Notes: generated from the letters alone by a model not told the origin. A stretch of 64,000 nt of DNA from Nitrosopumilus sp. (GCA_965207445.1 CBDBLX010000002.1:864001-928000); one strand, 5' to 3'; shown: positions 3,001-58,294, numbered from the stretch's first letter. Program-made: numbers and translations.

Positions 3001-6000
3001 GCCAACTCCACACACATACTGGTGGCCGACCGCGACAGGGACGTCGTGCTGGTGTTTGACTCTTCGGGAAGGTTTGTCTCGGAGTTTGGCAAGCAGGGCA
3101 GGGGCGACGGCGCGTTTGAGGATGTGCGCGGCATGGCGCCCGGCTCCCCGCACATGTTCATGGTGGATTCCGAAAACCACAGGGTGTCTGTGTTTGCACC
3201 CTCGGGAATCTTCGGCACGCAGTATGGGGGCGAAGGCACGGGGCTTGATCCGTTCGGCGACCCGTACGACATCGTGATCCATGACAAGTACGTGCTCGTG
3301 GCCGACCGCGATCTCCCGTACGTGGCCAAGATCGACCTCTCGGAGTTCGCATTTGACACGACGCCACCGACGCTCGTCATATCAGATATAACAGTAGGCG
3401 CCACAGATATCGAGACCACAGTCAACCTCGGATTCCCATCGATCTCAGATGAGTATGGCGGTCCATATGTAGTGACGCACAATGTCACGGGGGCACACGA
3501 GGTCGCCACTGCCGCAGTCAACGCGTCGTTTAGGGTGGGCACCCACGTGATACAGTGGAGCGCCACGGATTCATCGGGAAACAGAGGCACCGCTGAGCAG
3601 CGTGTGACGGTCTCAGATACGACACCACCGTATGATTTGCGACTAAAAGGCGACGACCCAGTTTCCATACATATCGGGACCCCGTACACTGACGCGGGCA
3701 TATATTGCTTTGACACGTTTGATCTCTCTCCAATGACTACGGACAACAGCAGCTTGATAGACGCGTCCGTGGCCGGAACGTACCGGATTGCGTACTCGTG
3801 TCAGGACGCCTCCGGCAACGAAGCCGAACAGCAAGTATTCAGGACCGTTATAGTACTTGGGACGCCGGCCGCGCCCGCGGGACTGACCACCTCCCCTGGC
3901 AACGCGCAGGTTGTGCTGTCGTGGACCGAACCCGATGACGGCGGCTCTCCGGTCACCGGCTATATGGTAGAGTACAGCTCCGATGGCGGCACGTCGTGGA
4001 GCGCGTTTGGAGATGGTACCGGCACGGCCACCTCTGTTACGGTCACGGGACTGACAAACGGCCAGCAGTACGAGTTCCGCGTGAGCGCTACCAACGCGGT
4101 GGGGATGGGCCCCGCCTCCGGCACGGTCTCTGCCACGCCTGATGCCCCAGATACAGTGACGCGTCCGGGCCCGCCGACCGGGCTGGCCGCCACCCCTGAC
4201 AACGCGCAGGTTGTGCTGTCGTGGTCTGCCGGAAACGATGGCGGCTCTCCGGTCACCGGTTATGTGGTAGAGTACAGCTCCGACGGTGGCACGTCGTGGA
4301 GCACGTTTGGAGATGGTACCGGCACGGCTACCTCTGTTACGGTCACGGGACTGACAAACGGCCAGCAGTACGAGTTCCGCGTGAGCGCCACGAATGCAGA
4401 GGGCACGGGCCCAGCGTCCGGCACGGAGTCTGCCACCCCGCGCGGCCCGCCAGGCGCGCCCACCGGACTGACCGTCACCCCCGGCAACGCGCAGGTCGTG
4501 CTGTCGTGGACCGAACCAGATGACGGCGGCTCCCCGATCACGGACTACGTCATAGCCACAAGAACTACTGGCTCGTGGATCATATATACAGATGGCACCG
4601 GCACGGGCACCAACGCCACCGTCACAAACCTGGAAAACGGTGTTAACCGCAGTTTTTACGTTTATGCTATAAACGAGGCCGGCCGTGGACCCATCTCCAC
4701 AATAGTGTATGCCACGCCGCGCACAGTCCCGGCCGCGCCCGCGGGACTGGCCGCCTCCCCGGGCGACGCGCAGGTTGTGCTGTCGTGGACCGAACCTGGT
4801 AGCGATGGCGGCTCCCCGGTCACTGGATACACCGTGGAGCAGCGGTCAGGCAGCGCCGCCGCGTGGGAACTGTCTGCCGTCAGCCCCGTCACCGTCACCA
4901 ACGCCACCGTCACGGGCCTGACAAACGGCCAGCAGTACGAGTTCCGTGTAAACGCCACCAACGCGGCCGGCACGGGACCCGCCTCTGATGCCGTACCTGC
5001 CACGCCGCGCACAGTCCCGGCCGCGCCCGCGGGACTGGCCGCCTCCCCGGGCGACGCGCAGGTTGTGCTGTCGTGGACCGAACCTGGCAGCGATGGCGGC
5101 TCCCCGGTCACTGGATATACCGTGGAGCAGCGGTCAGGCAGCGCCGCCGCGTGGGAACTGTCTGCCGTCAGCCCCGTCACCGTCACCAACGCCACTGTCA
5201 CGGGCCTGACAAACGGCCAGCAGTACGAGTTCCGTGTAAACGCCACCAACGCGGCCGGCACGGGACCCGCCTCTGATGCCGTACCTGCCACACCGCGCAC
5301 AGTCCCGGCCGCGCCCGCGGGACTGGCCGCCTCCCCGGGCGACGCGCAGGTTGTGCTGTCGTGGACCGAACCTGATGACGGCGGCTCCCCGGTCACCGGC
5401 TATATGGTAGAGTACAGCTCCGACGGCGGCACGTCGTGGAGCCCGTTTGGAAACGGCACCGTCACGGCTACCTCTGTTACGGTCACAGGCCTGACAAACG
5501 GCCAGCAGTACGAGTTCCGCGTGAATGCCACCAACGCGGCCGGCACGGGCCCCGCCTCCGGCACGGCCTCTGCCACGCCGCGCCCCGCTCCGGACAAAGT
5601 GACGCCTCCGGGCCCGCCGACCGGGCTGGCCGCCACCCCTGACAACGCGCAGGTCATGCTGTCGTGGTCTGCCGGAAACACGGGCGGCTCCCCGATCACC
5701 GACTATACCATCGAGTATAGCTCGGATTCCGGCATCACGTGGAAAGTGTTTCCGACCTCTGGAATTCTTCTGTTTGTCACCGTCACAAGCCTGGAAAACG
5801 GTGTGGACTACCAGTTCCGCGTGAATGCCACCAACGCGGCCGGCACGGGCCCCGCGTCAAACACTGCGTCTGCCACGCCGCGCACAGTCCCGGCCGCGCC
5901 CACCGGGCTGACCGCCTCCCCGGGCGACGCGCAGGTCGTGTTGTCGTGGACCGAACCCGATGACGGCGGCTCCCCGGTCACTGGATACACTGTGGAGCAG

Positions 6001-9000
6001 CGGTCAGGCAGCGCCGCGTGGGCCACGTCTGCAGTCAGCCCCGTCACCGTCACCGACGCCACCGTCACGGGCCTAACAAACGGCCAGCAGTACGAGTTTC
6101 GCGTCAATGCTACCAACGCGGCCGGCACGGGCCCCGCGTCAAACACCGCGTCAGCCACGCCCTCTGCCCCTGCCACGCCTGACACCGCGCCGCCCGTCAT
6201 AAGTCTCAACAACCCGTCACTCGTACGCGTCGAGGCGGGTGGCACGTATGTGGAGCCCGGCGCCGTGTGCAGTGACGACCGCGACCCCGACAAGGCCGCC
6301 ACAGTCGGGGGCGCGACAGTTGACCCAGACACGATCGGAACCTATGAAGTTACATACAACTGCTCCGACGCCGCAAACAACCCTGCAGCACAGGTGACGC
6401 GCACCGTCCAGGTGAGCGACACCACAATACCCGTAATTACACTGAACGGCAACTCTGCAGTCTCGGTCCCACGGGGCACCTCCTACGCGGACGCGGGCGC
6501 CTCATGCGATGACACGTTTGACTCCTCGCCGGCGCTGACAGACAACAGCAACGCGATCGATACATCCGCGACAGGGACGTACCAGGTAACGTACTCGTGC
6601 CAGGACGCCTCCGGCAACCAGGCCGCGCAGGTGTCCAGGACAGTCTCCGTGTTCACGACGCCGGGCGCGCCCACCGGGCTGACCGCCTCCCATGGCAACG
6701 CGCAGGTCGTGCTGTCGTGGTCTGCCCCTGGCAGCGATGGCGGCTCCCCGGTCACTGGATACACTGTGGAGCAGCGGTCAGGCAGCGCCGCGTGGGCCAC
6801 GTCTGCAGTCAGCCCCGTCACCGTCACCGACGCCACCGTCACGGGCCTAACAAACGGCCAGCAGTACGAGTTTCGCGTCAATGCTACCAACGCGGCCGGC
6901 ACGGGCCCCGCGTCAAACACCGCGTCAGCCACGCCCTCTGCCCCTGCCACGCCTGACACCGCGCCGCCCGTCATAAGTCTCAACAACCCGTCACTCGTAC
7001 GCGTCGAGGCGGGTGGCACGTATGTGGAGCCCGGCGCCGTGTGCAGTGACGACCGCGACCCCGACAAGGCCGCCACAGTCGGGGGCGCGACAGTTGACCC
7101 AGACACGATCGGAACCTATGAAGTTACATACAACTGCTCCGACGCCGCAAACAACCCTGCAGCACAGGTGACGCGCACCGTCCAGGTGAGCGACACCACA
7201 ATACCCGTAATTACACTGAACGGCAACTCTGCAGTCTCGGTCCCACGGGGCACCTCCTACGCGGACGCGGGCGCCTCATGCGATGACACGTTTGACTCCT
7301 CGCCGGCGCTGACAGACAACAGCAACGCGATCGATACATCCGCGACAGGGACGTACCAGGTAACGTACTCGTGCCAGGACGCCTCCGGCAACCAGGCCGC
7401 GCAGGTGTCCAGGACAGTCTCCGTGTTCACGACGCCGGGCGCGCCCACCGGGCTGACCGCCTCCCATGGCAACGCGCAGGTCGTGCTGTCGTGGTCTGCC
7501 CCTGGCAGCGATGGCGGCTCCCCGGTCACTGGATACACTGTGGAGCAGCGGTCAGGCAGCGCCGCGTGGGCCACGTCTGCAGTCAGCCCCGTCACCGTCA
7601 CCGACGCCACCGTCACGGGCCTAACAAACGGCCAGCAGTACGAGTTTCGCGTCAATGCTACCAACGCGGCCGGCACGGGCCCCGCGTCAAACACCGCGTC
7701 AGCCACGCCCTCTGCCCCTGCCACGCCTGACACCGCGCCGCCCGTCATAAGTCTCAACAACCCGTCACTCGTACGCGTCGAGGCGGGTGGCACGTATGTG
7801 GAGCCCGGCGCCGTGTGCAGTGACGACCGCGACCCCGACAAGGCCGCCACAGTCGGGGGCGCGACAGTTGACCCAGACACGATCGGAACCTATGAAGTTA
7901 CATACAACTGCTCCGACGCCGCAAACAACCCTGCAGCACAGGTGACGCGCACCGTCCAGGTGAGCGACACCACAATACCCGTAATTACACTGAACGGCAA
8001 CTCTGCAGTCTCGGTCCCACGGGGCACCTCCTACGCGGACGCGGGCGCCTCATGCGATGACACGTTTGACTCCTCGCCGGCGCTGACAGACAACAGCAAC
8101 GCGATCGATACATCCGCGACAGGGACGTACCAGGTAACGTACTCGTGCCAGGACGCCTCCGGCAACCAGGCCGCGCAGGTGTCCAGGACAGTCTCCGTGT
8201 TCACGACGCCGGGCGCGCCCACCGGGCTGACCGCCTCCCATGGCAACGCGCAGGTCGTGCTGTCGTGGTCTGCCCCTGGCAGCGATGGCGGCTCCCCGGT
8301 CACTGGATACACTGTGGAGCAGCGGTCAGGCAGCGCCGCGTGGGCCACGTCTGCAGTCAGCCCCGTCACCGTCACCGACGCCACCGTCACGGGCCTAACA
8401 AACGGCCAGCAGTACGAGTTTCGCGTCAATGCTACCAACGCGGCCGGCACGGGCCCCGCGTCAAACACCGCGTCAGCCACGCCCTCTGCCCCCGTCGTGA
8501 TAACTCACCCTGGTCCACCGACCGGGCTGTCTGCTGTCTCGGTTGACGGAGGGGCCGCGCTGTCGTGGACCGCACCCGCCGACGACGGGGGCTCTGCAAT
8601 CACGGATTATATCATACATTTCAGGGTGGTTGGTGGCACCTCGTGGATCGTATACGTAGACGGTTCTGGTACGGCCACCACCGTCACCGTCACGGGCTTG
8701 GTAAATGGACTGATGTACGACTTTCGCGTGAGCGCCACGAACGTGGCCGGCACAGGACACGTCTCCAATACGTCATCCGCCACGCCCGTCTCCCCATACC
8801 CGGTCCCCCCAGTCCCCGACGACCTGAACAGGGCGGCCGTCTCGTTCACCTCGCCCTCGGGCGGCGACCCTCTAAGGGGAACCATAACACTCGAGCGCCC
8901 CGCCAACAAGACGATGAAGTTCGCGGCCGAGATACGCGAGTGCGTGGTGGACCTGGGCAACGTCGGCAATATCCCTCTCCGGTCGGCTGACATGTGCGGC

Positions 9001-22318: not shown

Positions 22319-22400
22319 GTAACCGTTCAACCCCTGGTACTTGCACTAGATGTTAGGCGGCGAATCTGTGCCTAAATTTGGAAAGAGGTTGAACGGTTAC
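22319..22400 (+). mobile_element. MITE family A
   Basis: gtaaccgttcaacccct ... ggttgaacggttac; no TSD seen. Confidence 0.88.
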
Positions 22401-22465
22401 GACAGGAACATAACCAAATACAAGTATATGATTTCATTGTTACATTCAAAGAACTTGATTCACAC
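22401..22465 (-). mobile_element. Partial family-B MITE
   Basis: Reverse complement aligns with 45562-45626 (shared tcatatacttgtatttggtta). Confidence 0.7.
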
Positions 22466-23257: not shown

Positions 23258-24178
23258 TCACACATGTACTTGTTTTATGATATAGCTTGCAAGTGCATCT
23301 TCTGCTGCCTTGTTTTTCATTGTAATCTTTGTCTCGTATACGTTGATATCTAAACTCTTGATATTTTTTGCCAGAGCTCTGTCTTTTGTGTCAATTACGA
23401 TATTTGAGCATACATCTGAATACATCTGAGCAAGTCCATATGCAGTTGACTCTATTCCGGCAGCTTGCATATATTTAGCAGCTGGCCCTGTAATAGATTC
23501 ATTTCCTATAAGTGGACTTACCGCAACAACTTTTTTCTTTGCCTTTGAGAGTTCTTTTTTAATGCCCTTTATCTGAAGCATTGGGCCTATTGATGTCAGT
23601 GGGTTTCCTGGTGCCAATATTATGATCTTTGCATTTTGTATGGCATTAACTGCTTCGGGATTTGGACGTGCTTTGTCTGCACCAATGTATTCTATTCCCT
23701 CCACTTTATCTCTCCCTCTATATTTTACCCAGTACTCTTGTAAGTGGAGATCTCCTTTGTTTGTATTTAGTCTAGTTTCAATAGTGTTATCTGAGACGGG
23801 AATGATATTTGCACTTACTGCAAACTTTTCACACATCCACTTTGTAATATCAGTAAGGTTTTTGCCATTTTTGAGCATGTTTGTTCTGATCAAATGAGTT
23901 GCAGCATCTCTGTCACCGATCCTAAACCACGCCTCCTCACCAAATATTTCCATCTGTCTTAAAAAGTTAAAAGTGTCCTTTTTCACTCCCCATCCTTTTT
24001 CTTGGTCAAGTAGGTCTGCTAATCCATATATTATTGTATCAATATCTGGACATATATATAATCCATATAACCAATAATTATCTCCTACATTACTAATTAC
24101 ATTAATTTTTGATTCTTGAGTCGCTAGACCTCTTACTAGCTTTACTGAACCTGTACCACCTGCAAGTATAGTTATCAT
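23258..24178 (-). CDS. cofD: 2-phospho-L-lactate transferase
   Basis: LAGGTGSVK, ICPDIDT, IGDRDAATH. Confidence 0.95.
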   Translation of the reverse strand: MITILAGGTGSVKLVRGLATQESKINVISNVGDNYWLYGLYICPDIDTIIYGLADLLDQEKGWGVKKDTFNFLRQMEIFGEEAWFRIGDRDAATHLIRTNMLKNGKNLTDITKWMCEKFAVSANIIPVSDNTIETRLNTNKGDLHLQEYWVKYRGRDKVEGIEYIGADKARPNPEAVNAIQNAKIIILAPGNPLTSIGPMLQIKGIKKELSKAKKKVVAVSPLIGNESITGPAAKYMQAAGIESTAYGLAQMYSDVCSNIVIDTKDRALAKNIKSLDINVYETKITMKNKAAEDALASYIIKQVHV

Positions 24179-24388
24179 TATTCTTCTCTCTGTAATGTAT
24201 TGGTCAAATTATGCTCCATATTAGTTTTAAAATTATGGATTTTTGCCCTCAAACCCTGTGTGGGCCTTGTAGTTACTTTCAATATGGGGTGTATGTGATC
24301 TCAATTTTATAAGTACATTTTATAATGTTGCAAATCGCTGTTATTTGTAACTAATGATGGTCCCCCGTGGTTGATCGTTTTGTTGCAA

Positions 24389-24468
24389 GTAATCGTTCAC
24401 TCATCAATGCCTGCGCAGGCGTTAGGTGATGAATCTGTGTCTGAATTTGGTAAGGGATTGAACACCTG
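24389..24468 (+). mobile_element. Degenerate MITE family A
   Basis: gtaatcgttcac...cctgcgcaggcgttaggtgatgaatctgtgtctgaatttgg...ggattgaac. Confidence 0.7.
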
Positions 24469-24492
24469 TGTAATCCTCCGTGTGTGGTGCGG

Positions 24493-24729
24493 GTGATATT
24501 TGCAGTTGCACTTTGTTTCCGTTCCTACTGATTACACTACCTCTGATTACACTACACATGATTACACTACACATGATTACACTACACATGATTACACTAC
24601 ACATGATTACACTACACATGAGAACGTGATGTTTGCAGTTGCTTTGTTTCCATTCCTACCAAAATATTAAGTGAACTCAAATCCGCTTCACGTCAGTGAT
24701 GTTTGCAGTTGCTTTGTTTCAATTCCTAC
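24493..24729. CRISPR. CRISPR-like mini-array: 3 repeats (24493-24528, 24626-24659, 24696-24729) and 2 spacers; no cas genes in the window
   Basis: Repeat gtgatgtttgcagttgctttgtttc(c/a)attcctac; 36-bp spacer 24660-24695; the other spacer is 97 bp, inflated by a 15-bp tandem repeat. Confidence 0.55.
24529..24618. repeat. 15-bp tandem repeat tgattacactacaca x6 (first copy variant)
   Basis: Direct reading of the sequence. Confidence 0.95.
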
Positions 24730-24793
24730 TTTGATGAAGAATAGTTTATAGCTGATGCTAGGGGTGAACTTCCAAGATGTGTCCTTGGGCTTA

Positions 24794-25516
24794 TTACTGC
24801 TTTTGACTGCTTGCCTTTTTCATCTTGTGTGGCTTGCGTTGGTACATTACTCTTGCGTGATCTGTATGGATCACACGTGTTTAAGATGTGCTACATTATT
24901 GTGATCATCTTATGCGCCAGTTATTATGCAAAGTGTGTGTTTGCATGTATGCAGTTGCTTGGATGTCTCATAGAATAGTTGCATCATTGGGTCGTGCATG
25001 AATGCAACTGAGCTGCCTCATACATGACACAGTTGATATTGTCAGTGTTCTACTTTTTGATGTGGTTCATACGCGACACGTCACCTATTTTGGGGAGGAA
25101 TCTGGCCATTGAAATTATCTTTTTTAGATTCTTGAATCGTGACACACAGTATATCTACACTACTAGTAATAGTGCAATAAATGCACCCACACTTGGGCAT
25201 GCTTATCAACAGCCCACAGTATATTCGTTATTTTCTGTCTCTTTGATGATATACTAGTCAGTATCTCTTAGAGATTCTCTTAGATGATGCATCTACTAGG
25301 CGTTTTTTGTATCACATACGTTTCTGCCAGAGTTTCCTAATTCGACCTTTTCTAACTATTCTATGTCTTTGCGCGAGTGCATTTTTACCGCGTTGATCTC
25401 TACATTGCAGGCATCGCGCAGACTACGTATACGATTCATCATTTGTGTGCGTTTGTGTCAGGTTTTTGTGGTGTCGTACCTATGTCTTGATGCCTCTTAC
25501 GTGTGGCTCAGTTACG
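24794..25516 (-). pseudogene. Degenerate IS110-family transposase (central and C-terminal part)
   Basis: Broken translation: EPHVRGIK.*VRH, NRIRSL, SMPSVGAFIALLL, SRFKNLKKIISMA, MYEAA, AHKMITIM*HIL; matches the IS110 C-terminal domain pattern (sIPGVG..A..l.aei....RF...kkl.s.aGl.P). Confidence 0.75.
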
Positions 25517-25606
25517 TTGTATAATTATTTGTCATTTTTATTGTACAATTTGTGAAAAACAAATATCAAGATAGATTTATTACCTTTATTCATAATTAAT
25601 TAAATA

Positions 25607-26836
25607 ATGCTCAGGGCAATTATGATTGCAAGTATTGTTGCAAGTTTGGCAGTAATTGGAACTAGTACTGATTCATGGGCGGCCCAACTTGATGCCACAA
25701 TAACTCCAAGCTCTGAGACGTCACCATTTAAGATGAGTTATCTTAAAACAATTCACGTGTGGTATGAGAATGGTGGCGTTGTAGCAGATGAACTGCGTGA
25801 TGTTGATCATATCATCAATGGTAGTGCTAATTCTGGTTCTAATGCTGATGTTCAGGATTTAATTGATCGCTTAAATGTACGATTATTTGAAAGTGGCAGT
25901 CTTGCAAAGATCTCTGATTTGAATGTTGATTATACATTTATTTTATCTGGTGGAGAAGAACGTGCTTCAATAGACTACAAGATAATACTTCAAGGAACTC
26001 TCACTGATTATATCATTACTTCTGATTCACTAAAGTCACTTGTAGACTTGGGTTGGAGAGGAATGTCTGTTGATGGAAGCGTTGTTATAGATGGACAAGA
26101 GATTAATGACCCTTTTGTATTTGTAGATGATAAATTTCCTGCTACATCTGATATGATAACTAGTACAGCAGCTGATCGTATATTTGATGACTATTTGATA
26201 AATGCAGACTTTATACTTGAGCAACCATTGACAAATTGGCACTTTTTATTTGATCCTACTGGGATTAATGTTGATGCATCTACATTTGGACTAGATGATG
26301 AAATTTCAGGATTCATAAAATCTAGTTGGACTATGGGTGAGAGTAATATTCAACAAGGCAGACAAGTAGAGCGAGTTGAGGAAGAAGTTGTCACAACGGA
26401 TCAAACATATATTGTCAAGAGTGTACAATCACCTGATCAGGGAAATCTAAACATAATTGGCTTTGGTGCTTTGGACTCGATTGATGGTGTAGAGATTGCA
26501 GGTGTTACACCACAACCACCAGAGGGATACAGTAATACTGCAACAGGCGACTTTCCAATATTTATCATATATGGAATGGCGGGAATGGCTGCTGTTGCTG
26601 GTATTGCATTCTTTTTCATTAGTAACAGAGCACTGAAGAACGAAAAACAAGGACAGCAAGGAATTGATCCATCTGATCTGGTAGGACATCAGACTAGTTC
26701 TGCGTCTGGAGGTTATCAGACAAACAGAGGCGAAGCCCAACTTAGGAGCGACTCGGATTATCAACAAACTCGCAACTATTATGAGCAAGAGTCTACTACA
26801 AAACAGACGCAAGGCTATTCTGCTGCTGCCATATGA
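25607..26836 (+). CDS. Hypothetical secreted protein with C-terminal membrane anchor
   Basis: Signal peptide, acidic ectodomain, TM helix near residue 320. Confidence 0.85.
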   Translation: MLRAIMIASIVASLAVIGTSTDSWAAQLDATITPSSETSPFKMSYLKTIHVWYENGGVVADELRDVDHIINGSANSGSNADVQDLIDRLNVRLFESGSLAKISDLNVDYTFILSGGEERASIDYKIILQGTLTDYIITSDSLKSLVDLGWRGMSVDGSVVIDGQEINDPFVFVDDKFPATSDMITSTAADRIFDDYLINADFILEQPLTNWHFLFDPTGINVDASTFGLDDEISGFIKSSWTMGESNIQQGRQVERVEEEVVTTDQTYIVKSVQSPDQGNLNIIGFGALDSIDGVEIAGVTPQPPEGYSNTATGDFPIFIIYGMAGMAAVAGIAFFFISNRALKNEKQGQQGIDPSDLVGHQTSSASGGYQTNRGEAQLRSDSDYQQTRNYYEQESTTKQTQGYSAAAI

Positions 26837-26920: not shown

Positions 26921-27200
26921 GTGTGCTGAGAGTAACCCTCCTTTTGTTCTCACGACATTTCGCTTTGCGGCCAACCTGAACCTGATACAGGATCTAAGGT
27001 CACTATTTGGCCTTTCTCCATGCGGGTCGGCTTTTTTCATTCCGCAGGTGGAAACCTCAGGGGATGCCATCATTGTACTCCACATTGGATTCATTTCTGC
27101 TCCGTTGCCAGCCGTCTCCGACTATCCGTCTTCGGATCGCACTCCTGTATGGAGGGAGGAGTTTCCTCTGCCGTAGCAGCAGTCGTGCTTCAGCTCACAC
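26921..27200 (-). ncRNA. rnpB: RNase P RNA
   Basis: Minus strand has GAGGAAACTCC near the 5' end and AACAAAAGGAGGGTTA near the 3' end (P4), complementary termini, raised GC. Confidence 0.92.
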
Positions 27201-43575: not shown

Positions 43576-45222
43576 ATGAGTAATACACGAAAACCTAGTG
43601 ACGCTGAGGAAATTTTATCTGAATTTACAAGTTCAAAATCTGATTCAAACGATACAAACAAGGATACAGATAATTCTGAATTAATCGACTCTGCACCTAA
43701 TGTTTCACCTAGTGTAATATCCTCTGAGCCATCTTCAACTAACAGTGATCAAACTCTTGAATCTAACTCACCTAATGAGCTTCATTCTTGTGCCGATTCT
43801 AACTCTTGCTCTGATGATTCTATTGTTGCTGATAAACCACCCATTGAATCAACTCCAACACCCACTGAACCAACCACAACTGAATCCTCCAATATGGGTG
43901 AACCTCAACATTCTTGTGCCGATTCTAACTCTTGCTCTGATGATTCTATTGTTGCTGATAAACCACCCATTGAATCAACTCCAACACCCACTGAACCAAC
44001 CACAACTGAATCCTCCAATATGGGTGAACCTCAACATTCTTGTGCCGATTCTAACTCTTGCTCTGATGATTCTATTGTTGCTGATAAACCACCCATTGAA
44101 TCAACTCCAACACCCACTGAACCAACACCCACTGAATCCTCCAATATGGGTGAACCTCAACATTCTTGTGCCGATTCTAACTCTTGCTCTGATGATTCTA
44201 TTGTTGCTGATAAACCACCCACTGAACCAACACCCACTGAATCCTCCAATATGGGCGAACCACAACATTCTTGTGCCGATTCTAACTCTTGCTCTGATGA
44301 TTCTATTGTTGCTGATAAACCACCCACTGAACCAACACCCACTGAATCCTCCAATATGGGCGAACCACAACATTCTTGTGCCGATTCTAACTCTTGCTCT
44401 GATGATTCTATTGTTGCTGATAAACCACCCACTGAATCAACTCCAACACCCACTGAATCCTCCAATATGGGTGAACCACAACATTCTTGTGCCGATTCTA
44501 ACTCTTGCTCTGATGATTCTATTGTTGCTGATAAACCACCCACTGAATCAACTCCAACACCCACTGAATCCTCCAATATGGGTGAACCACAACATTCTTG
44601 TGCCGATTCTAACTCTTGCTCTGATGATTCTATTGTTGCTGATAAACCACCCACTGAATCAACTCCAACACCCACTGAATCAACTCCAACACCCACTGAA
44701 TCAACTCCAACACCCACTGAACCAACACCCACTGAACCAACACCCACTGAACCAACACCCACTGAACCAACACCCACTGAACCAACACCCACTGAACCAA
44801 CTCCAACACCCACTGAACCAACACCCACTGAACCAACACCCACTGAATCCTCCAATATGGGTGAACCACAACAATCTCATGTTGATGTCACATCTGATTC
44901 TAATAATGACAAGTCCACCACTAAACCACCCCCACCCGAGCAACACTCTGAATATAGAGATGTGATATTTGTTGGAAGTAAACCAATAATGACTTATGTT
45001 TCTGCCGTCCTTACTCAACTTGCAAATAGAGATACAGTTACGGTCAAAGCCCGAGGTAAAAAAATCACTAATGCAGTGGATGTCTCACAAATGATCATTA
45101 AAAGAATGGATAGTGTTGGTTATGTAATATCTGATACTAGAATATCTTCTGACTCTCTCATATCAAATGATGGGAAATACCGCAACGTCTCTACAATGGA
45201 AATTGACATATCAAAAAAATAA
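43576..45222 (+). CDS. alba: Alba-domain nucleic acid-binding protein with ~460-aa acidic tandem-repeat N-terminus
   Basis: C-terminal IFVGSKPIMTYV..VKARG..I..AVDV...RNVSTMEI; eight HSCADSNSCSDDSIVADKPP units. Confidence 0.88.
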   Translation: MSNTRKPSDAEEILSEFTSSKSDSNDTNKDTDNSELIDSAPNVSPSVISSEPSSTNSDQTLESNSPNELHSCADSNSCSDDSIVADKPPIESTPTPTEPTTTESSNMGEPQHSCADSNSCSDDSIVADKPPIESTPTPTEPTTTESSNMGEPQHSCADSNSCSDDSIVADKPPIESTPTPTEPTPTESSNMGEPQHSCADSNSCSDDSIVADKPPTEPTPTESSNMGEPQHSCADSNSCSDDSIVADKPPTEPTPTESSNMGEPQHSCADSNSCSDDSIVADKPPTESTPTPTESSNMGEPQHSCADSNSCSDDSIVADKPPTESTPTPTESSNMGEPQHSCADSNSCSDDSIVADKPPTESTPTPTESTPTPTESTPTPTEPTPTEPTPTEPTPTEPTPTEPTPTEPTPTPTEPTPTEPTPTESSNMGEPQQSHVDVTSDSNNDKSTTKPPPPEQHSEYRDVIFVGSKPIMTYVSAVLTQLANRDTVTVKARGKKITNAVDVSQMIIKRMDSVGYVISDTRISSDSLISNDGKYRNVSTMEIDISKK

Positions 45223-56793: not shown

Positions 56794-57155
56794 GCGGCTG
56801 GATGGCCGCCGCACCCAAAAAACTAGCGTGTTGTATAATTCGATGCGCATCTTGTAGGACGACACCTTTGCAATATGATTTGGCAGGCTTGTAGTGACAT
56901 GTGTAAGAGTACAAGATATAATGACCAGATTTGAAGCATTACATCTTCAAAAATCAAACATGTTGATCCTATCCTATACCTCTGAATTTAGTGCGTAATT
57001 ATACGCGCAAATGATTGTTTATGTTTATGTTGTTGTTAGAATTTTGATGTCACCTCCTTGGCCAATTTGCCGCATTGTGTTATGGGTGTGGATCTTTAGT
57101 TTGATCACTTGGTAGATATTCTCCATCTTTCTTGCCATGACCGCACCACCGTAGG

Positions 57156-57236
57156 GTAACTGTTCAACCCCCGTACCTGCGCCAGACGTTAGGCGGTGAA
57201 TTTGTGCCTAAATTTGGGAAAGGATTGAACGGTTAC
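57156..57236 (+). mobile_element. MITE family A
   Basis: gtaactgttcaacccc ... gattgaacggttac, 81 bp. Confidence 0.9.
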
Positions 57237-57457
57237 GGCTTGTTGTAGGCGTGACTTGACACACCTGCTAACATCATATCTTGAGGCAGGCAGTTTTCCT
57301 GTCTAGTTTACAGAGCATTTGAGTGGCTTCGAATCGTGTAACGTAGGTTGCGCGACTCACTACATGGACACGACCCCGGAGGAGTATAAATTTACAAATT
57401 ACGCAACACACTATAAAAAACACACAGCTTTTATTATGATTTACTTTATGTATTATA

Positions 57458-57859: not shown

Positions 57860-58140
57860 GCGATAAACATACGCCAGATATAATTAAAAGTGCATAACAT
57901 GATCATAATAATATAGAACATTCTAAACACGCAAGAATCCAAAGTCATACAACGAGAATGTGTGCATCAACGCAGGATAAACACGATGAAAAAAGCAAAG
58001 CCAAGCAGTAGCTCGGCAGTCTTAGATTGACAACTTTTATCTCTATTGTGAGATATGAACAACTTTGCACCCAAGTAAATATGGAACAAAAGTGCAACTA
58101 CACAGTCACCTCAATCACACGAGGAGAGAAGGATTAACAT
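57860..58140 (+). pseudogene. Second IS110 remnant: ORF 3' end plus non-coding end with one copy of the array repeat (58075-58109)
   Basis: 57892-57931 matches rc of 24876-24915 at 34/40; similarity continues past the stop. Confidence 0.7.
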
Positions 58141-58294
58141 ATGTCAACGATTACAAATGATGGCATTTTGTACTTTATATTGCGTTGTAAATGTCGTGAC
58201 ATTGTTGATCATAAAAAACAGATTGATAATTACACACAGTTACGTAAGTTGGTTAAGCGTTAATATTAAATGATAGGATAAAAGAGGTTGAAAT

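Follow-up and report, generated by a model that had tools for sequence, protein, structure and literature searches.

In the current analysis, we characterized a short repeat-spacer array at one end of a decayed insertion sequence (IS) of the IS110 family in Nitrosopumilus sp. The array lies within a stretch of 64,000 nucleotides (nt) (GCA_965207445.1, CBDBLX010000002.1:864001-928000), here called the window and numbered from its first letter, and its neighbour genes are cofD and a membrane-protein gene. Read on the minus strand downstream of the decayed transposase gene, the order is a AGCTATAAA box, repeat R1, spacer S1, repeat R2, spacer S2, repeat R3, a 29-nt tail ending in ..GGATTACACAGGTG, and a copy of an 81-nt repeat that resembles a miniature inverted-repeat transposable element (MITE); coordinates are collected in Table 1. 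R1, which is GTGATGTTTGCAGTTGCTTTGTTTCAATTCCTAC on the plus strand, and R2 are 34 nt long and identical at 33 of 34 positions (one mismatch), the repeat borders are sharp at 34 nt, and R3 is a diverged third copy of 36 nt that departs from R1 by three substitutions and a 2-nt indel. S1 measures 36 nt and S2 97 nt, the latter being made up of 6.2 copies of the 15-mer TGATTACACTACACA plus 4 nt (Tandem Repeats Finder, TRF) and reduced to 37 nt when four of the 15-mers are removed; the two spacers have no relationship in sequence. The repeat is present at no other place in the genome by blastn, and none of 100 shuffled versions of the window yielded two repeat matches. Contigs assembled from short reads (four runs of one sample, which may be the assembly's own source) reproduced positions 24000-24573 and 24592-25800 without difference and broke only within the 15-mer tract. 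The array itself is confirmed as real. From the sequence features described below, we consider it probable that the array is the scar of off-target (ectopic) adaptation by a CRISPR system and not a device of the IS, left by two successive integrations and a later slippage of the 15-mer; it is most likely one of about thirty stray integrations across the genome.

The element that hosts the array is strongly decayed. There is no long open frame across 24740-25516, and positions 24913-25221 on the minus strand align with the C-terminal domain of an intact IS110-family transposase of 366 amino acids (aa) from the same genome (tblastn, E 1.5e-5), with three in-frame stops in the alignment. Positions 24809-25212 share 69% identity over 426 nt with another decayed copy, copy b (C2:1500851-1501273), which matches Pfam Transposase_20 (PF02371, E 9.6e-9) and DEDD_Tnp_IS110 (PF01548, E 0.0018). 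The window copy, then, keeps only a decayed C-terminal part of the transposase, and its homologue copy b has both domains of the family. The N-terminal half of the gene has been lost, and the left boundary of the element is uncertain, at about 25465-25509. Since the gap between cofD and the downstream gene is 1428 nt here vs. about 100-150 nt in 11 genomes of the same genus, roughly 1.3 kb was inserted between them.

The relatives of this element were drawn from its own genome, a scan of genomes of the species, and 120 genomes of the same genus, and comprise 16 distinct elements. Intact ones are 1421 nt long, with a left end of ~185 nt, a right end of ~135 nt and a transposase of 366 aa. A single right-end plan is found in 11 of the 16: the stop codon, ~35 nt, CCnAGCGnnAGCTATAAA, ~22 nt, a motif of the form GTAGGCACGGA..AAGTGCAAC.., ~30 nt, and the terminus GTTAnCATAGGTG. 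R3 and the tail align base for base to this canonical plan; therefore, the motif originally present in the element is R3, just upstream of which the 203 nt of R1-S1-R2-S2 were added. R3 has also kept the ancestral ..AAAGTGCAAC.. state, as have other copies. The motif is single in copy b, in copy c (a second decayed remnant in the window) and in the 11 relatives with a canonical right end, and a search of the 3′ flanks for direct repeats of at least 18 nt at 40-200 nt spacing detected none in the 16 distinct relatives (0/16), the window element serving as positive control. These results agree with much of the original prediction, which had described three repeats parted by unrelated spacers of 36 and 97 nt, the longer of which collapses to 37 nt, beside an IS110-family element whose two copies in the window are both pseudogenes. 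It had also held that the repeat is part of the element and not a chance neighbour, as the motif in relatives' right ends and the single diverged motif at the homologous place in copy c bear out, and that the repeat farthest from the open reading frame (ORF) is the most diverged, which is now understood as R3 being the oldest copy.

A complete CRISPR system resides in the same genome. Its arrays lie at C2:68.6-74.6 kb and C2:76.8-79.6 kb and hold 83 and 39 repeats, respectively, in a genome scan. An IS66-family element (L116, C2:74675-76826; 465-aa DDE_Tnp_IS66, E 1.4e-29) is inserted in one of the CRISPR repeats and divides the resident array into two parts. The repeat is 36 nt, [C/G]CTTCAATGGGGCCGCAACTTTTGTGTTGCGGAAAT, the period is 71-75 nt, and the spacers are 35-39 nt (mostly 36-38), counting the near-invariant C/G before the 35-nt core as repeat. 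A type I-G gene set flanks the arrays and is complete by NCBIfam (Cas4g/Cas1g, Cas2, Cas7g, Csb2, Cas3g and a Cas3 extension). The Cas4g/Cas1g fusion is intact, at 565 aa and 731 bits vs. a cut-off of 560. The genome's only Cas1 match is at C2:80241-81080, ~0.8 Mb from the array studied here. When the resident spacers were compared with their own genome, no usable protospacer was found and no protospacer-adjacent motif (PAM) could be derived. The repeat of the IS110 array is unrelated to the resident repeat, yet the unit sizes are the same: in the IS110 array, the repeats measure 36 and 34 nt, the spacers 36 and 37 (+60) nt, and the period is 70 nt. In detail, the duplicated segments (36 nt for R3 and 34 nt for R1 and R2) compare with a resident repeat of 36 nt and derive from a motif that is single in relatives, and the inserts (36 nt for S1, and 37 nt plus four 15-mers for S2) fall within the resident range of 35-39 nt, for S2 only if slippage is assumed. 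Because its repeat is unrelated to that of the resident system, the array is probably functionless.

Units of this size recur throughout the genome. Among non-tandem direct-repeat pairs 30-400 nt apart, 38 pairs occurred at 69-74 nt vs. 21 in the 48 neighbouring distances, the expectation being 2.6 (Poisson P about 1e-30). From 39 listed units, we dropped those with a repeat below 30 or above 42 nt or a period outside 69-74 nt, as well as a junction between two MITE copies and a duplicate unit on contig C1, which left 28 high-confidence units, R2-S1-R1 of the array included. Their repeats measure 30-40 nt (mostly 34-37) with 0-1 mismatch between copies, and their spacers 32-42 nt (mostly 35-37). 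Each unit has its own repeat sequence, and the 27 further units are unrelated to the IS110 end motif. In 4 of the 39 listed units, the spacer reproduces another locus of this genome at nearly full length (32/33, 35/36, 33/35, and about 27/32 nt identical); the copied segments end sharply, and their flanks are unrelated. Open frames of 302-683 aa contain seven units whose period is exactly 72 nt, as 24-codon inserts in linker-like regions, and several with a period of 71 or 73 nt coincide with the ends of open frames; for the unit beside cysS, the true start codon is probably downstream of the unit. Two units duplicate MITE-internal segments that are found once in the MITE reference copy, and a paralogue of the gene at C2:1805712, which holds a unit, loses homology at that unit. 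At the unit borders, C is the first spacer base in 13 of 26 units, and T-rich sequence occurs 3-7 nt before the repeat end in 15 of 26; with unit orientation not fixed and many positions compared, this composition is suggestive only, as a hint of site preference. Two different solitary units stand 13 nt apart at C2:120263-120490, which hints at local integration hot spots. Other repeats with at least three copies in the genome scan proved to be ordinary tandem repeats and not units.

Off-target, or non-canonical, integration is described as leaving a spacer-length insert together with a repeat-length duplication and so giving rise to "neo-CRISPR" loci, and in E. coli it is reported to spawn new arrays (Nivala et al., 2018, as cited elsewhere). 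Pyrococcus Cas1-Cas2 is likewise reported to integrate at non-CRISPR sites in vitro, and a type I-G Cas4/1 fusion is reported to accomplish prespacer maturation and integration without further factors. Keeping this in mind, we infer the order of events, the slippage and the acting enzyme as follows. The IS110-family element had entered an 81-nt MITE, within its terminal repeat, between cofD and the membrane-protein gene, and a 36-nt segment, the ordinary conserved motif of its right end, would have served as a pseudo-repeat (R) when the host integrase integrated a prespacer of ~37 nt at this non-CRISPR site. The two strands would be attacked at staggered points separated by about one repeat length, and filling of the gaps would duplicate the 36-nt target and yield R-S2-R with a period of 73 nt. 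The ORF-proximal copy would then have lost a TG and taken two or three substitutions; TG is ancestral, as copies b and c and the relative L065 show. A second integration at this altered copy would give R1-S1-R2 with a period of 70 nt, and replication slippage would later have added four 15-nt units (+60 nt) within S2. A related satellite in intergenic DNA (TAGTATAATCATATA, C2:1556426-1556500), alike at 12 of 15 positions to the tract at window 24529-24621, shows that tracts of such 15-mers exist in the genome. The integrase was most likely the resident type I-G Cas4/Cas1-Cas2 module.

Table 1. Features of the array, its host element and a second remnant in the window.
Feature	Coordinates	Strand	Basis
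Partial copy of the 81-nt MITE-like repeat	24389..24463	+	blastn against the genome, alignment of ends, sequence reading
Tail that closes the IS110 right end (transposase strand: ..CACACGGAGGATTACACAGGTG)	24464..24492	-	Homologous to ..GTTAnCATAGGTG termini of intact relatives
R3, original 36-nt right-end motif GTAGGAACGGAAACAAAGTGCAACTGCAAATATCAC, oldest pseudo-repeat copy	24493..24528	-	Keeps TG, as do copies b and c and relative L065
S2, older spacer, 97 nt, TGATTACACTACACA x6.2 + 4 nt	24529..24625	-	TRF; would have been 37 nt before slippage
R2, pseudo-repeat copy, 34 nt	24626..24659	-	Repeat comparison
S1, younger spacer, 36 nt, unique	24660..24695	-	Sequence reading, spacer searches
R1, pseudo-repeat copy, 34 nt, adjoining the ORF-proximal part of the right end	24696..24729	-	Repeat comparison
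ORF-proximal part of right end, with AGCTATAAA box (+ strand 24745-24753) ~22 nt upstream of the motif	24730..24808	-	Box in 11/16 distinct relatives
Decayed C-terminal part of IS110-family (DEDD) transposase gene	24809..25221	-	tblastn; nucleotide identity to copy b
Strongly decayed 5′ remainder of the element, with left-end remnants	25222..25509	-	Alignment to relatives' left ends; synteny
Copy c, a second decayed remnant of an IS110 right end, with one diverged motif (58075-58109) and terminus ..GGATTAACATATGTC	57860..58145	+	Alignment to right ends

Several observations weigh against such a history. At 97 nt, S2 has a spacer's length only if the 15-mer expanded later, and the younger duplication, at 34 nt, is 2 nt short of the resident 36. 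Random choice of sites would make two integrations in exactly one register very unlikely, so that a site preference must be assumed. Neither the pseudo-repeat of the array nor those of the other units resemble the resident repeat: mean best identity to it is 13.97 vs. 14.0 for random sites, and R3 gave a P of 0.41 in a gapped comparison. Sources for the spacers, which the original prediction had proposed to seek in element flanks, the genome and viral sequences, were lacking for S1 and S2 in their own genome, where only chance words matched, and in viral contigs, where three exact seeds gave three matches limited to the 18-nt seed (20-21/36 overall) and S2 gave 0; protospacers are identifiable for four other units of the class. 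At those four protospacers, no consistent PAM or common flank was seen. Moreover, empty sites are visible only through copies of mobile elements and not at orthologous loci, where none could be shown for three units outside mobile elements: the genes holding the units at C2:293216 and C2:1805712 were not found in 30 genomes of the same genus, and the intergenic stretch with the unit upstream of cysS does not align in relatives. The last such point comes from control scans, which covered stretches of two genomes of the genus (0.8 of 1.36 Mb in G229 and 1.6 of 2.01 Mb in G177). G177 has six pairs at 71-73 nt (repeats of 32-38 nt; G177:C1 541166, 732797, 1474824, 1479353, 1505435, and 1599699) without possessing Cas4g/Cas1g or the repeat of the window's genome. 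A 72-nt class can therefore arise where no I-G module is resident. A module of that type that was lost or is mobile could account for these pairs, as could a spacing intrinsic to sequence-independent integration, and this class lowers our confidence in the resident I-G module specifically, as opposed to a Cas1-Cas2 integrase generally.

The remaining control results concern the relation between unit size and the resident system. G229, which is without Cas1, showed 29 pairs in all, with 0 at 71-73 nt and 2 at 69-70 nt. The single Cas1 of G177 is not a I-G fusion, and the array of this genome, with 12 repeats of 30 nt, has a period of 64-67 nt. Six solitary pairs at 63-67 nt were found in this genome; three units with a period of 65-67 nt have repeats of exactly 30 nt that start with ATTNCAA and match the repeat of G177 at 15-19 of 30 positions (counted by eye). 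In this 63-67 class, unit size seems to follow that of the resident array.

The main reading of the original prediction was an IS110 lineage whose 3′ end holds an expandable multi-guide array. Each 70-nt unit would then supply the recombinase with a scaffold and a variable guide. This would suit a repeat that truly belongs to the right end and is conserved there, at ~22 nt downstream of a TATA-like box that is also conserved, as well as the occurrence of repeat-spacer-repeat units in two of the three decayed copies of the sub-lineage and the presence in S2 of GTGTAATC, complementary to GATTACAC at the element terminus (one 8-nt complement). A bridge RNA or seekRNA of the lineage should, however, be conserved in intact relatives and match their ends and target, whereas no relative has the array; in intact homologues the motif is single and spacers never occur, an outcome that the prediction had itself set against the idea. 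The conserved RNA-like region of the lineage (~180 nt, holding CTGATAGGTG) lies instead in the left end, and a 7-mer inside it equals the terminal 7-mer of the right end in 7 of 10 elements, in three co-varying variants (GGAG, GGTG, and GATG). The 7-mer takes the forms ATAGGTG, ATAGGAG, and ATAGATG in relatives L063, L065, L068, L069, L072, L074, and others. The match looks like covariation of a donor-binding guide in a bridge-like RNA encoded at the left end, a layout that is known from IS621-type bridge RNAs and that argues against guide RNAs at the 3′ end in this lineage. Rfam returned nothing at threshold at the array locus or in the intact and decayed IS110 copies. In addition, copy b has its own unit (R34-S56-R34, C2:1502091-1502214) in a non-homologous place, inside the RNA-like region of its left end, where relatives have the segment once; the spacer of this unit holds a (TAC)6(TGC)2 run and looks like a second case of expansion by slippage. 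With the transposase here destroyed and units of the same kind at 27 further high-confidence sites with different repeats, a multi-guide array is already close to refuted, and we give it very little credence. The accompanying suggestion that the element seeds CRISPR mini-arrays survives in part: the IS end seems to have acted as a pseudo-repeat for the host integrase, but the 27 unrelated units point to a property of host adaptation and not of the IS.

Other routes to such an array also deserve mention. Sibling insertions at a resident right end, followed by recombination, might leave right-end modules of ~70 nt as by-products of IS110 activity; the motif-to-end distance of 65-66 nt in intact copies is near the 70-nt period, the left end of the window copy is immediately bordered on its outer side by a sequence like a right-end terminus (..GACATAGGTAC), and relative L073 (G259:C1) has its terminal ~20 nt (GGGTGTTTTTACATGAAT) duplicated in tandem at the element end. 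Neither S1 nor S2 contains the conserved terminus ..GTTAnCATAGGTG found in every right-end module, though, the repeat borders are sharp at 34 nt, and neither the 27 units of the same size elsewhere nor the copied spacers would be accounted for; this origin is improbable. The regular geometry, unique spacers and degenerate distal repeat could also be those of a bona fide orphan mini-array that belongs to another CRISPR system, lost or mobile, and simply neighbours the IS. Against this, IS110 copies here and in other genomes have a right-end motif homologous to the repeat, which is unique in its genome, matches no Rfam CRISPR family at threshold, and is unrelated to the resident type I-G repeat, contrary to the possibility raised earlier that it would be identical to that of a cas-linked array. 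The 19-nt repeat core gave 17 single matches in metagenome contigs, none extending beyond chance (21-26/34 identical), and 0 matches in viral contigs, and the chance that we are dealing with an orphan array seems very slim. Finally, tandem repeats are common in this genome, and a 70-nt segment might simply have been duplicated in tandem and then diverged. The repeats, however, are 33/34 identical while the intervening 36- and 37-nt segments are unrelated, and neutral divergence cannot erase one half of a unit and spare the other, so that plain duplication is extremely improbable.

Among known systems, the neo-CRISPR loci of Nivala, Shipman and Church, as cited elsewhere, share with the present array a spacer-length insert, a repeat-length duplication of a non-CRISPR segment, the possibility of a second insertion at the same place and the need for active Cas1-Cas2 (Nivala et al., 2018). 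That work reportedly used over-expressed type I-E proteins in E. coli, natural evidence being then only circumstantial and coming from two other species. What is described here differs in that the scars are natural, belong to an archaeon with a type I-G system, number about 28-38 sites with several inside ORFs, and show no likeness to the resident repeat. The census of isolated arrays by Shmakov and colleagues from 2020 is said to discuss an off-target route for sequences that resemble the resident repeat. Such a route fits the three 30-nt units of G177 and not the units of the window's genome. More generally, off-target acquisition is one of three proposed origins of isolated arrays, and the resemblance extends to a small array that is located away from cas genes and was born on a sequence other than a CRISPR repeat. 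Mini-CRISPR arrays carried by viruses are likewise described as having one or two spacers and two or three repeats with no cas genes nearby; their repeats match the host CRISPR repeat and their spacers usually have targets, whereas the present repeat bears no relation to that of the host and the searches yielded no target. The IS110/IS1111 bridge RNAs and seekRNAs are akin to our case in their DEDD-type host element, conserved non-coding end and left-end 7-mer matching the right-end terminus, but the repeat-spacer units lie outside the RNA region, intact relatives lack them, and they also occur away from IS110 elements. Tandem interspaced guide RNA (TIGR)-Tas arrays, which have a dual-spacer unit and an adjacent Tas effector, are similar in appearance only, in that short repeats and variable segments alternate; the unit size here is that of the resident CRISPR, the repeat is an IS end motif, and no Tas (Nop-domain) gene was seen, although no search was aimed at one.

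A narrow search of open-access text found no reports of such scars in archaea or in type I-G systems. The kind of event is already known; the present instance is a two-spacer stack on an IS110 end in a genome with 28 high-confidence scars, and this genome-wide scale is notable. Scars in this number from a single genome would give off-target integration a natural record, which includes units within open frames and spacers with nameable genomic sources besides the stack itself. The record could be used to study site preference, the length measured by the Cas4/1 fusion as a ruler, the cost of autoimmunity, and the origin of new arrays. For genome scans, it serves as a caution that a repeat-spacer pattern beside a mobile element can be the work of host CRISPR machinery and not a feature of the element, and a simple test is at hand in comparing the unit size with that of the resident array and looking for sister units elsewhere in the genome. 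A more far-reaching idea, which we regard as unlikely but not negligible, is that the type I-G Cas4/1-Cas2 integrates chromosome-wide without a repeat-like target and is a standing insertional mutagen, the IS110 end being a transcribed, polar and still-growing proto-array. If so, the I-G module would add 24-codon inserts to proteins, truncate genes, and capture self DNA, and the right end of the IS110 element, with its outward TATA-like promoter and two stacked units, would represent a proto-array at birth.

The 81-nt MITE-like repeat occurs in more than 150 copies in the genome and has terminal inverted repeats of the form GGGTAACTGTTCAACCCC ... GGATTGAACGGTTACGG; besides the copy adjoining the array, the window contains copies at 57156-57237 and 22350-22430. 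The IS110 right end abuts the MITE inside its terminal inverted repeat (..GGATTGAA followed by CACCTGT..), and the right end of relative L065 is followed by a similar TCCAACCCCCC. Since both right ends adjoin such sequence, the IS110 lineage may target the MITE repeats. IS110/IS1111 elements that target repetitive extragenic palindromes are known. The terminal repeats of the IS66-family element that splits the resident array are the same as those of the MITE, and this element is probably its autonomous parent. Two more repeat families flank the 81-nt element at window 57000-57156 (~10 copies) and 57231-57435 (~25 copies); elsewhere, 0.7-3 kb separates them, as if they were the ends of a further insertion sequence, and window 57000-57435 is a deletion derivative of this pair. 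Two genes downstream of the array, at window 26921-27198 on the minus strand, is the archaeal RNase P RNA (Rfam RF00373, 184 bits). Long tandem repeats are present at window 4710-6137 (288-nt units, in a stretch whose G+C content is far above the 40% average of the genome) and 43783-44847 (105-126-nt units), and probably represent repeat domains of large surface proteins.

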